Assembly (NCBI GenBank): GCA_050173015.1
Contig: JBFXLE010000008.1
Coordinates: forward strand, 64,584 to 128,583
DNA: 64,000 nt
Source of the DNA: Calditrichaceae bacterium
GTDB lineage: Bacteria; Calditrichota; Calditrichia; Calditrichales; JBFXGD01
Direction of reading: 5' to 3'
Shown: positions 34,872-37,373 of the stretch, piece after piece
Numbering within the stretch: the stretch's first letter is position 1
Layout of the letters: each line of letters begins with the position of its first letter
Position numbers and translations under genes: made by a program
The notes under the pieces: generated by a model
The model's database searches: none
Told to the model about the DNA's origin: nothing
What the model saw: the letters and a program-made list of their open reading frames with translations, nothing else

Positions 34872-36128
34872 TTATGTGCCCATTTCCCATGAGGCCAGAT
34901 AGTGTTTCTGTTCTTCCGTGAGAGTATCAATTGTAATACCCATCGATGCAAGTTTCGCGTCAGCAATCCAGTTTTCGATTTCACCGGGTACCTCATGCAC
35001 ACCGTTCGGCAATTTATTTTTTACTGCATATTCTGTCGCCAAAGACTGAGTGGCAAAGCTCATGTCCATTACCGAAGCGGGGTGTCCTTCCGCCGCTGCC
35101 AGATTGATTAAACGTCCATCCGCGAGAAGATAGATCTTACGTCCGTCTTTCATAATGTATTCATCAACATAATTCCGAACTTCAGGATTCTTTGTTTCCG
35201 CCAGATCATGCAGATCATCAATATTTATCTCAACATTAAAATGTCCGCTGTTCGCTATGATCGCGCCATTTTTCATCACTTCAAAATGTTCTTTACGCAA
35301 GACATGAATATCGCCCGTAATGGTTACGAACAAATCACCCGTCTTGGCCGCCTCAATCATGGGCATGACCATAAACCCGTCCATCGCCGCTTCAAGAGCT
35401 TTGATCGGCTCCACTTCCGTAACGATGACATTGGCGCCCATACCTTTCATTCGCATCGCGAATCCTTTTCCGCACCATCCGTACCCGGCTACAACTACTT
35501 TTTTCCCGGCAACAAGAAAATCGGTAGCGCGTATGATACCGTCAACAGTAGATTGACCCGTTCCATAACGGTTATCGAATAAATATTTTGTCTGAGCGTC
35601 GTTTACGGCGAAGACCGGCATTTTAAGAGCGCCGTCTTTGTGCATGGCGCGTAAACGAATGATTCCTGTGGTGGTTTCCTCCATTGAACCAACGATTTGT
35701 GCCGATTTTTCAGGATAATCCGAATGAATCGTTGAAACGAGATCGGCGCCGTCATCCATGGTCACAACCGGATCATGTTCAATCGCTGCTTTTATATGAT
35801 CATAGTAAGTTTTGTTGTCTTCTCCTCTGACCGCATACACGGATATACCGTAATCAGCGACAAGTGAGGCGGCCACATCATCCTGAGTGCTTAGGGGATT
35901 TGAAGCCACCAACACTAGATCTGCTCCGCCGGCCTTTAAGGTGCGCGCAAGATTTGCGGTTTCAGCGGTCACATGAAGACAGGCTGACATCTTTTTTCCC
36001 GCCAAAGGTTTCTCTTTTTCAAACCGTTCTCTGATTGCTCGTAAAACGGGCATGTCACCATCCGCCCATTCAATTCGTTTCCTGCCTTGCGGGGCCAATG
36101 ATAAATCCTTTACATCGTGCTTAACCAT
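34872..36128 (-). CDS. ahcY: Adenosylhomocysteinase (short 418-aa form)
   Basis: [63 protein letters not shown]. Confidence 0.97.
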
Positions 36129-36176
36129 TTGTTATTCTCTCCCTTTCTAATATGATGATTCTATTACTTTTATACT

Positions 36177-37373
36177 TTATTGTTTTTTAAATATCTGATA
36201 AAAAACGTCTATGTTTTCTGTACTATGCCATGAACGAAAAGCGGTCTCAGTTAATTTCGCCTTTCTAGCCCATTTTCTCAAAACCAGCGGATTAAATCCC
36301 AGCCAGAGATCACGCATTTTATCAGCCAGTTCCTTATTATTATGACGCATAAAATCTACAACCACCAGATAGCCGCCTTTTTGTAAAATTTCAGCGGAAA
36401 CAAATATCAAATCCGCCGGATCAGGCACATGATGCAGTGCAAGCGAAATAAAAACCTGATCACAACTTTTTGATTTTACCGGCAATTGGCTGATATTTGC
36501 CTTGAGGATGCTAAAATCTTTTAACGAAAGAGACTTTTTTATCGCGATTAACTGCCTGAGCATGATTTGGTTAATTTCTATACCGGTAACTTTCGCTCCC
36601 CGTAAAGCATTATGAATAGCCACAAATCCGGTACCGCTTCCAAGATCCAGGATATTTTTATTTTCCTGGCCATTGAGCAAGGAAAATATCTCATCGAGAC
36701 GGCTTTCATCAAAGTAATTGTTTCTGACATGATCCCATTCATTTCTTATCTGATCAAAATAAGCCTGACTTTTTCTGTGAATTTGATTTAAAAGGTCATC
36801 TGGCGGCTCAAATGAATTTATAAATCGGGCGATATCCTGAATTTCCAGATATCCCGCGTTCTCCCTGAACCATTGCGGAAGAAAATACAGGAGATAGGCT
36901 TTTGTAAAACCGGCCCGTGCCCTGCTTATTAATGATGTCGCGGCCTGCACACTCAGATTCATCTCCCGGCTCAAGGCATCATAGCTTAACCCGTCAATCT
37001 CCCTGAGTATAAATATATGTTTCTGTCTCTCTGGAAGAGATGACAAAGCAGACTGAAAAGGTTCATCAAATTTCGATTCATCCATCTCGGTTTGCAGCGC
37101 GTCTTCATTTATCATTTCAAACTGCCGGCGCTTTTTTTGAAGATAGAAATTCACAACCCGGTTTCTTGCCACTGTAATCAGCCAGTTTTTCAGTGAACGG
37201 TCGGGATCAAGATTTTTCAGATTCTTCAAAGCCTGCAGATAAACATCCTGGCATAAATCTTTCGCGATCTCGGAACTGTTCACGGCATTTTTAATATAGC
37301 CGTAAACTTCGCCTTCGTGTGAATACAGTTTTTGCCAGATTTGTTTTTCGTACTTTTTATCTTTTTCAGTCAT
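36177..37373 (-). CDS. ECF sigma factor (sigma2 + sigma4) fused to class I SAM-dependent methyltransferase-like domain
   Basis: aa about 15-83 sigma2 (AKDLCQDVYL, LKNWLITVARN); aa about 108-156 sigma4 (LPERQKHIFILREIDGLSY...SLISRAR); aa about 200-398 MTase (ILDLGSGTGF, ALHHVPDP, GGYLVVVDF). Confidence 0.85.
   Translation of the reverse strand: MTEKDKKYEKQIWQKLYSHEGEVYGYIKNAVNSSEIAKDLCQDVYLQALKNLKNLDPDRSLKNWLITVARNRVVNFYLQKKRRQFEMINEDALQTEMDESKFDEPFQSALSSLPERQKHIFILREIDGLSYDALSREMNLSVQAATSLISRARAGFTKAYLLYFLPQWFRENAGYLEIQDIARFINSFEPPDDLLNQIHRKSQAYFDQIRNEWDHVRNNYFDESRLDEIFSLLNGQENKNILDLGSGTGFVAIHNALRGAKVTGIEINQIMLRQLIAIKKSLSLKDFSILKANISQLPVKSKSCDQVFISLALHHVPDPADLIFVSAEILQKGGYLVVVDFMRHNNKELADKMRDLWLGFNPLVLRKWARKAKLTETAFRSWHSTENIDVFYQIFKKQ

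Follow-up and report, generated by a model that had tools for sequence, protein, structure and literature searches.

A 64,000-nt stretch from a Calditrichaceae bacterium (assembly GCA_050173015.1, contig JBFXLE010000008.1, positions 64,584 to 128,583), which we call the window, carries on its minus strand a gene that joins an extracytoplasmic function (ECF) sigma factor to a class I methyltransferase (MT) fold. The gene lies directly upstream of ahcY, which encodes adenosylhomocysteinase, the S-adenosylhomocysteine (SAH) hydrolase. An initial annotation, made from the letters and their open reading frames (ORFs), had read it as a single 398-aa ORF with sigma region 2 (sigma2), sigma region 4 (sigma4) and an MT fold, and the ORF list and Pfam bear this out. 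The fusion gene is uninterrupted, starts with ATG and occupies 36177..37373(−), encoding 398 aa plus stop; the ORF, Pfam, NCBIfam and an alignment of the family define it.

Sigma2 spans aa 18–83 (37125..37322(−); Pfam PF04542 Sigma70_r2, 50.3 bits, cut-off 24) and sigma4 spans aa 106–154 (36912..37058(−); PF08281 Sigma70_r4_2, 49.9 bits, cut-off 25.7), and the protein scores 83.1 bits against the NCBIfam sigma70-ECF model TIGR02937 (cut-off 42.9). Pfam matches neither region 3 nor region 1.1 in it, so that the sigma part consists of regions 2 and 4 only, and no named sigma equivalog of NCBIfam is reached, the best being SigZ at 83.6 bits against a cut-off of 212. By its domain content the fusion protein is an ECF-type (group 4) sigma factor; its sequence matches in the PDB are the ECF sigma factors SigH, SigE and SigW, plus methyltransferases. 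Sigma4 is followed by a family-specific helical linker (aa 155–200; 36774..36911(−)), delimited by AlphaFold2 helices and invariant residues, and then by the MT-fold domain (aa 201–398; 36180..36773(−)), a member of the SahR/ArsR-MT subfamily with intact cofactor-binding motifs. Methyltransf_11 covers aa 242–338 (Pfam, 61.6 bits, cut-off 21.2), the class I signature is present as a GxGxG motif (G245, G247 and G249) with an acidic residue after strand 2 (E/D266), and Foldseek matches the domain to RebM, UbiG and other class I S-adenosylmethionine (SAM) methyltransferases with E values of about 1e-11 to 1e-12. The strings that the initial annotation had quoted, SQAYFDQIRNEWDHVR, LDLGSGTG, ALHHVPDP and VVDFMRH...DLWLGF, are all found in the translation.

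In an AlphaFold2 model built on a 27-row alignment (mean predicted local distance difference test score, pLDDT, 83.4; predicted template modelling score 0.54), the sigma2, sigma4 and MT domains are confident, and the connector between sigma2 and sigma4 (aa 82–102) is disordered. The linker is modelled as helices at 167–175, 178–185 and 191–208, with pLDDT falling to 55–69 over about aa 170–200. Across the 27-member alignment, invariant residues occur in every part of the protein: D39, Q42, W64, R70 and N75 in sigma2; L148, R151 and R153 in sigma4; P166, D180 and R183 in the linker; and W213, D243, G245, G249, H314, H315, H344, D351, D355, W357, G359 and F360 in the MT domain.

The ahcY gene (34872..36128(−); 418 aa; TIGR00936, 631.3 bits, cut-off 497.6) follows the fusion gene on the same strand after 48 nt, a distance that the initial annotation had given and that the coordinates and the TIGR00936 match support. 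We found no hairpin in this spacer (36129..36176(−)), which holds a Shine-Dalgarno-like GGGAGA before ahcY. A terminator-like hairpin of 13 pairs followed by a T run (34829..34857(−)) lies 15 nt past the ahcY stop, where the initial annotation had placed a terminator; shuffled sequences give about as many such sites in our hairpin scan, so only the position of this one counts. Our best reading is that the fusion gene and ahcY form one operon.

The fusion family and its linkage to ahcY

In a collection of 5.8 billion proteins, 77 match the fusion at E ≤ 0.001. The top 47 of these are the window's own cluster and 46 further clusters with 86–100% query coverage and 37–60% identity, and those 46 carry both sigma and MT Pfam domains. 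An alignment of 27 clusters is conserved end to end, linker included, with a mean column identity of 51%, and the 240-aa extension beyond region 4 is kept in 27/27 aligned members. Because 46 further full-length clusters show the same domains and a conserved linker, the fusion represents a conserved family and not an assembly chimera, a possibility that the initial annotation had itself raised.

With one genome taken per species, 21 Calditrichota-labelled loci hold a full-length relative (38–90% identity); one is labelled Caldisericaceae. Among 86 Calditrichota genomes, 23 encode the full-length fusion and five more the MT part only. One further fusion, L021, is 30% identical and comes from a metagenome-assembled genome (MAG) labelled Gemmatimonadetes; its GTDB phylum contributed three genomes, one with the fusion, and the genomic context of distant fusions is that of this single locus. 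Sigma+MT fusions outside Calditrichota comprise L021, the proteins P0114, P0116 and P0168, and, as a lead only, another cluster in the ESM Atlas of 66 sigma+MT proteins that is commonest in Chloroflexota. L072 is not a fusion.

The association with ahcY is complete wherever it can be checked in Calditrichota. Three of the 21 Calditrichota loci run into contig ends, and in the remaining 18/18 ahcY lies directly downstream on the same strand; counted by genome, fusion and ahcY are adjacent in 20/23, with contig ends in G038, G013 and G011. The two counts draw on largely the same genomes and are not independent. Across the 18 syntenic loci AhcY is 81.6–87.3% identical and the regulator 38–58%. 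The spacers between the two genes measure 14–287 nt in the relatives, each with a Shine-Dalgarno-like sequence before ahcY, and no substrate-related gene is conserved beside the pair. The linkage of homologues to SAM-cycle genes, which the initial annotation had anticipated, therefore holds for 20/20 informative Calditrichota genomes and fails for the 30%-identical L021.

Inspection of the long spacers (198–287 nt) in L004, L009, L010, L011, L015 and L017 reveals short tandem and inverted repeats; in L017 a hairpin with a T run behind it sits between the two genes. Read-through into ahcY may be attenuated in some relatives.

The initial annotation had further supposed that the sigma domain replaced an ArsR domain at the same locus. 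Profile searches of 20 Calditrichota genomes that lack the fusion found an ArsR, MT or sigma ORF within 3 kb upstream of ahcY in 0/20. Before ahcY in 20 relatives lacking the fusion, nothing in Rfam reached its gathering score.

Kinship of the methyltransferase domain

Immediately after the fusion family, and ahead of UbiG-like enzymes, the best matches to the fusion protein are 11 proteins that combine an ArsR domain (HTH_5/HTH_20) with the MT domain (E 4.4e-18 to 6.5e-9). An exhaustive HMMER search with aa 165–398 returned 5344 proteins at E ≤ 0.001, and the best 150 of the 5344 include sigma-MT fusions, ArsR-MT proteins (~300–350 aa), stand-alone MTs (~210 aa) and tandem MTs. Classed by our own profiles, 220 proteins divide into 59 sigma+MT, 61 ArsR+MT, 89 single MT, 8 tandem MT and 3 sigma only, where the class of 89 means proteins with no sigma or ArsR part and includes other fusions. 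Among the matches listed, these other fusions join the same MT subfamily to LMWPc (an ArsC-like phosphatase), PNPOx, HTH_17 and C_GCAxxG_C_C (P0103, P0119, P0136, P0156, P0164, P0175 and P0178), and the subfamily looks like a widely reused module. A profile of the linker stretch run on P0078–P0135 of the 220 proteins matched no more than five, all close family relatives: three complete fusions, a truncated one and a fragment with only the MT domain that begins in the linker.

Comparison of the fusion family with 26 ArsR-MT proteins by hhalign gave a probability of 100% (E 1.4e-51) over 288 columns, with sigma4–linker–MT collinear with the helix-turn-helix (HTH)–linker–MT order of the ArsR proteins; the HTH part of this match has low confidence. 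In the ESM Atlas, again as a lead only, ArsR-family+MT clusters make up 8/10 nearest structure rows, of which seven align from query residue 96–114, where sigma4 begins, and the eighth from residue 148, all through to residue 398. Pfam finds no HTH_5 or HTH_20 match in the fusion protein, whose N terminus is sigma2 plus sigma4; as the ArsR/SmtB winged-helix domain is absent, the fusion is not a member of the SahR family itself. NCBIfam has no SahR model and no named family for the stand-alone MTs.

Sigma-MT proteins, ahcY-linked ArsR-MT proteins and stand-alone MTs have in common Y/F205, F206, W213, D243, GxGxG, D/E266, H314, H315, D340, H344 and WLGF at 357–360, and UbiG-like MTs lack H314, H344 and WLGF. 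A DLWLGF-type motif also occurs in stand-alone members of the subfamily. Since stand-alone MTs carry it, the motif set on which the initial annotation had based a SahR-like domain marks the subfamily and not SahR alone; the kinship itself stands at the level of the subfamily, where the ranking of the ArsR-MT proteins and the hhalign match support an MT domain of the SahR kind.

Phylogenetic trees of the MT domain, made as quick IQ-TREE runs with support from the Shimodaira–Hasegawa-like approximate likelihood-ratio test (SH-aLRT) only and with groups named after the tree had been seen, place the two regulator types apart. The backbone of a 103-row tree is a polytomy. In an 83-row tree holding every second ahcY-linked locus and 16 stand-alone MTs, ahcY-linked ArsR-MT domains form one clade (SH-aLRT 98; 36 rows, 4 of them not ahcY-linked) and sigma-MT domains a separate one (98; 20 rows; 99 for the Calditrichota core). 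The stand-alone MTs stand apart, and all groups of the subfamily are split from UbiG-like MTs at 100. Two sigma+MT proteins, P0114 and P0116, are not part of the main sigma-MT clade and group at 100 on their own, which hints at a second, independent fusion event. In approximately unbiased (AU) tests, neither the grouping of sigma-MT with ArsR-MT (p-AU 0.724) nor that with stand-alone MTs (p-AU 0.712) was rejected. The trees thus retain both sister placements, so that the direct ArsR-to-sigma replacement first proposed is one of two candidate origins: sigma-MT would have arisen either by a module swap in a SahR-like ancestor or by independent fusion of the same sensor.

The ArsR-MT proteins are themselves tied to ahcY. 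A profile of the 26 ArsR-MT proteins (A3) matched 584 stretches in metagenome contigs, and we examined the best 80 loci. With AhcY of the source genome as tblastn query, ahcY was found downstream on the same strand in 64/80, or in 64/71 with enough downstream DNA once nine loci with short downstream DNA (L110, L111, L140, L142, L148, L161, L170, L184 and L185) are left out. The ahcY start lies within about 0.5 kb of the ArsR-MT match except in L166, where metK intervenes. Of these best 80 loci, 13 contain metK and 5 contain part of metH. Because they precede ahcY in 64/71 informative loci, we regard the ArsR-MT regulators as SahR-type. Novichkov et al. reportedly described in 2014 an MT-like effector domain for SahR, which our ArsR-MT and ahcY data fit. 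The profile A3 also picks out, in a Xanthomonas MAG, a full-length ArsR-MT gene that immediately precedes one for homocysteine S-methyltransferase; a search for SahR in the class to which a Hyphomicrobiales MAG belongs gave a full-length ArsR-MT in 0/81 genomes and MT-only matches in 8.

The bipartite motif and neighbouring genes

Directly 5′ of the fusion gene, a bipartite motif, CGAAAG-N16-TGTATAT (37374..37402(−)), ends on the base adjoining the ATG at 37373, with A/T-rich DNA upstream. Both blocks recur at the same spacing before the fusion gene in 20/20 loci with upstream DNA, with small deviations in L017 (CAAAAG), L005 (TGTATTG) and L020 (spacer longer by 2 nt). With no symmetry and an unconserved N16 spacer, the motif is laid out more like a −35/−10 pair than like a dimer operator. 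ECF promoters combine a −35 element of AAC type with a −10 element of CGT type at a spacing of 16–17 nt. An operator palindrome was rejected because the N16 part has no conserved inverted repeat, and a housekeeping extended −10 promoter and a Bacteroidetes-type −7 promoter were rejected because neither fits both motif subgroups.

The motif is nearly unique to this site. The source genome holds the exact pattern three times against 0.85 expected, and the other two copies are inside opposite-strand ORFs with no gene downstream. A position weight matrix (PWM) scan ranks the site before the fusion gene first at 45.7 bits, the next at 29.1; with the two blocks only, the values are 37.3 and 24.9 bits. 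G006, G030 and G040 each have one exact motif, directly upstream of the fusion gene, and G001 and G004 have variant forms and no exact match; a reversed control pattern matched once across these five genomes. Among nine genomes checked, the motif is essentially single-copy in the four that have the exact pattern. Neither the exact nor the PWM scans gave a second credible site in the source genome, and metK, metH and metF are not among the matches. The runner-up, C21:57164-57191(−) (29.1 bits, or 24.9 with blocks only), lies inside a 595-aa opposite-strand ORF with no gene downstream; it is probably due to chance and could be an antisense start. A 17.5-bit match before a membrane/Nudix-like ORF on C3 was considered as a regulon member and judged to be noise. 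GTATAT right before a start codon is no general feature of the source genome (2/2621 long ORFs).

The start of the fusion gene bears on how the motif is read. From the ATG to the invariant W13 the distance is always a multiple of three (24–36 nt) and free of stops, the Ile codons preceding W13 show synonymous variation, and the window has an in-frame stop six codons before the ATG; the in-frame distance and the upstream stop together indicate that this ATG is the real start. By inspection, the likely start in L005, L009, L016, L017, L018 and L022 lies 8–25 nt past the motif, and four of these six loci have a Shine-Dalgarno-like AAGG or AGGA before it.

The 5′ region of the fusion gene is unstructured (z = +1.09 by RNA folding), and Rfam gives no match at E ≤ 1 over window positions 33000–39000. 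With no Rfam riboswitch and an unstructured 5′ region, control is more likely to be exerted by a protein than by RNA, and a riboswitch was rejected as the controller. In L082 (G044:C16), a locus without the fusion, the DNA ~190 nt upstream of ahcY looks like the motif's spacer and 3′ block, with TTGTATAT at its end, but lacks CGAAAG; this may be what is left of a sigma-MT promoter region since lost.

Downstream of the fusion gene come ahcY and then typA/BipA, and upstream lies a divergent 2Fe-2S_thioredx (NuoE-like) gene (Pfam); the window ORFs and Pfam searches on the neighbours show no adjacent anti-sigma gene, as the initial annotation had also reported. The typA/BipA gene (32959..34788(−)) follows the ahcY terminator, an order shared by L012 and L016. 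At 37740..41282(+), divergent from the fusion gene, the NuoE-like 2Fe-2S gene precedes ORFs of 395 and 597 aa that, by reading, resemble NuoF-like and [FeFe]-hydrogenase subunits of a HydABC-type enzyme. The NuoE-like neighbour is shared only with the closest relative, L001, and so is not part of the conserved unit. A second ahcY-like gene of the source genome lies on another contig (C32:20078-21274) and scores 501.5 bits, just above the TIGR00936 cut-off; G004, G026 and a few more Calditrichota genomes also have two ahcY matches.

A candidate switch for SAH hydrolase

We favour, with about even confidence, the reading that the fusion is a SAH/SAM-gated one-component ECF sigma factor dedicated to the sigma-MT–ahcY operon, for which we infer the ligand, the gating, the use of the promoter and the sign of the response. 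In the proposed sequence of events, a rise in SAH or a fall in the SAM/SAH ratio would lead to ligand binding in the MT domain, and binding would change the grip of this domain and of the conserved linker on sigma2 and sigma4. The freed sigma part would then work with core RNA polymerase and raise transcription of the sigma-MT–ahcY operon from the single conserved CGAAAG-N16-TGTATAT site, after which AhcY would remove SAH. By analogy with SahR and the SAH riboswitch, it is rising SAH that should switch the fusion on. The reading draws on sigma and MT domains above curated cut-offs, a family conserved along its full length, the linkage to ahcY, the homology of the sensor to ArsR-MT proteins, the intact cofactor motifs, the near-unique bipartite motif with its sigma-like 16-nt spacer, and the lack of an adjacent anti-sigma gene or a riboswitch. 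Action of the sensor on sigma4 through the linker is suggested by the conservation of the linker and by its collinearity with the HTH–linker–MT regulators.

Several observations weigh against this reading. ahcY is present in 79/86 Calditrichota genomes, far more than the 23 with the fusion, and the distant fusion L021 lacks both the motif and any SAM-cycle neighbour, its neighbours being patatin/cNMP, prolyl-oligopeptidase and MatE genes; the link to ahcY is therefore a property of the Calditrichota clade. The HH pair, H344 and WLGF are kept equally in stand-alone MTs, and this equal conservation of the sensor residues leaves room for enzymatic activity of the MT domain. Moreover, in 14/20 loci the start codon adjoins or overlaps the motif's 3′ block. 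Transcription usually starts 6–8 nt after a −10 element, so that initiation at the usual distance would lie within the coding sequence. This leaves either a leaderless mRNA of unusual layout or a motif that does not act as a promoter. Finally, binding of the ligand and of core RNA polymerase, and expression of the fusion, are predictions from sequence.

The misfit between motif and start codon can be turned into a different, unlikely model, in which the sigma domains bind DNA without RNA polymerase, sigma4 on CGAAAG and sigma2 on TGTATAT, and the protein acts as an autorepressor of the sigma-MT–ahcY operon that releases on SAH, following the logic of SahR. A motif that overlaps the start codon or lies 0–25 nt from it in 20/20 loci fits an operator more readily than a promoter, each genome has a single copy of it, and homologous ArsR-MT regulators at like loci are described as repressors (PMC4239095). 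The collinearity of sigma4–linker–MT with HTH–linker–MT, seen by hhalign and in the Atlas rows, points the same way, with the HTH part at low confidence. Set against this are the sigma2 and sigma4 signatures of a working ECF factor, kept and invariant in the family, and the lack of a conserved upstream promoter to block, where there is only A/T-rich DNA. We also know of no precedent for a free ECF sigma factor as a repressor.

The same conservation of every residue shared with stand-alone MTs, together with intact cofactor motifs, would be expected if the MT domain were an active methyltransferase of a small molecule or of the transcription machinery, with ahcY co-transcribed to remove SAH and the activity of the sigma part controlled otherwise, or not by SAH/SAM at all; fusions of the subfamily to the non-regulatory LMWPc, PNPOx and C_GCAxxG_C_C would fit as well. 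We rate this as unlikely as the autorepressor. Against it, the closest fused relatives found beside ahcY regulate transcription, no conserved substrate-related gene accompanies the pair, and a private SAH hydrolase is needless for one methyltransferase when AhcY serves all methylation and the source genome has only two ahcY copies. Still less probable in our view is a working sigma factor whose regulon lies elsewhere, with ahcY as an operon passenger and the motif belonging to another factor. The odd geometry of the motif for a promoter, the unrelated genes around L021, and the gaps between the two genes, which reach 287 nt in some relatives and in places hold hairpins and repeats, would suit such a factor; the linkage to ahcY is nonetheless complete where checkable and mirrors that of ArsR-MT to ahcY, and no second good motif site exists, a point that is valid only if the motif is the sigma factor's own.

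Returning to the gated sigma factor, its closest counterpart is SahR, an ArsR-family regulator whose core regulon comprises sahR, ahcY, metH, metF and metK and which, in PMC4239095, is described as SAH-responsive and not, as the initial annotation had it, as responsive to SAM. The effector of SahR is of the same MT-fold subfamily as that of the fusion, likely with the same ligand chemistry, and both systems have the regulator and then ahcY on one strand (64/71 informative ArsR-MT loci, 20/20 fusion genomes). They differ in output: SahR has an ArsR winged helix, binds a 20-bp palindrome and represses (in Proteobacteria), whereas the fusion has ECF sigma regions 2 and 4 and an asymmetric bipartite site, has MT domains that form their own clade, and would, by analogy, be expected to activate. 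Somewhat tentatively, at a little under even confidence, we see in the fusion a sigma factor released by SAH or the SAM/SAH ratio for its own gene and ahcY, the activator counterpart of the SahR repressor; this switch would have arisen either by exchange of the DNA-binding module at the same sensor and target or by independent recruitment of the sensor.

Other known systems resemble the fusion in part. SamR, a distant SahR homologue, is co-localised with metH1/metH2 in Xanthomonas (Xanthomonadales) according to PMC4239095, and the ArsR-MT gene before the homocysteine S-methyltransferase gene in our Xanthomonas MAG matches that published samR location; it is only 22% identical to the MT domain of the fusion (E 1e-4) and differs in regulon and output domain. 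The SAH riboswitch likewise switches ahcY on with SAH, as stated in that source, but its sensor is RNA, and no Rfam family is found at the fusion locus or at the 20 ahcY loci without the fusion. ECF groups with regulatory extensions share with the fusion the lack of a cognate anti-sigma gene, an extension that is conserved and presumed to sense (PMC8999054) and a conserved stretch between sigma4 and the extension; they differ in that the extension of the fusion is a class I MT fold and its predicted regulon one metabolic operon.

The initial annotation had known of no characterised MT extension of an ECF factor, and the literature agrees as far as it was covered. A methyltransferase appears in the available sections of the ECF review PMC8999054 only as a neighbouring gene of ECF122, and the terms methyltransferase, Methyltransf, Calditrich, Caldithrix and S-adenosyl are all absent from the main text of the ECF reclassification PMC7826278. 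A full-text search, with ECF group supplementary tables outside it, found no description of an ECF–methyltransferase fusion. An ECF sigma factor with a regulatory extension is thus known, and the combination of a SahR-type sensor with a one-operon metabolic regulon is new in so far as no description was found.

Two output modules, a repressor HTH and a sigma factor, on the same sensor and at the same target gene make a clean natural example of module reuse. Because the neighbouring gene, the repressor family and the fold all point to SAH/SAM, an inexpensive ligand would allow a direct test of how an extension gates a sigma factor. Combining a genome-unique promoter with a small-molecule input, such a sigma factor would be a useful orthogonal part for biosensors of SAH or methylation state, and the misfit between motif and start codon may reveal an unusual promoter or a leaderless layout in Calditrichota. 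If SAH or the SAM/SAH ratio does release the sigma factor, the fusion would stand as the first ECF factor whose signal is a defined intracellular metabolite, and as a minimal SAH switch of one protein and one promoter. For Calditrichota, it suggests a new, single-protein way of switching on the gene for SAH hydrolase.

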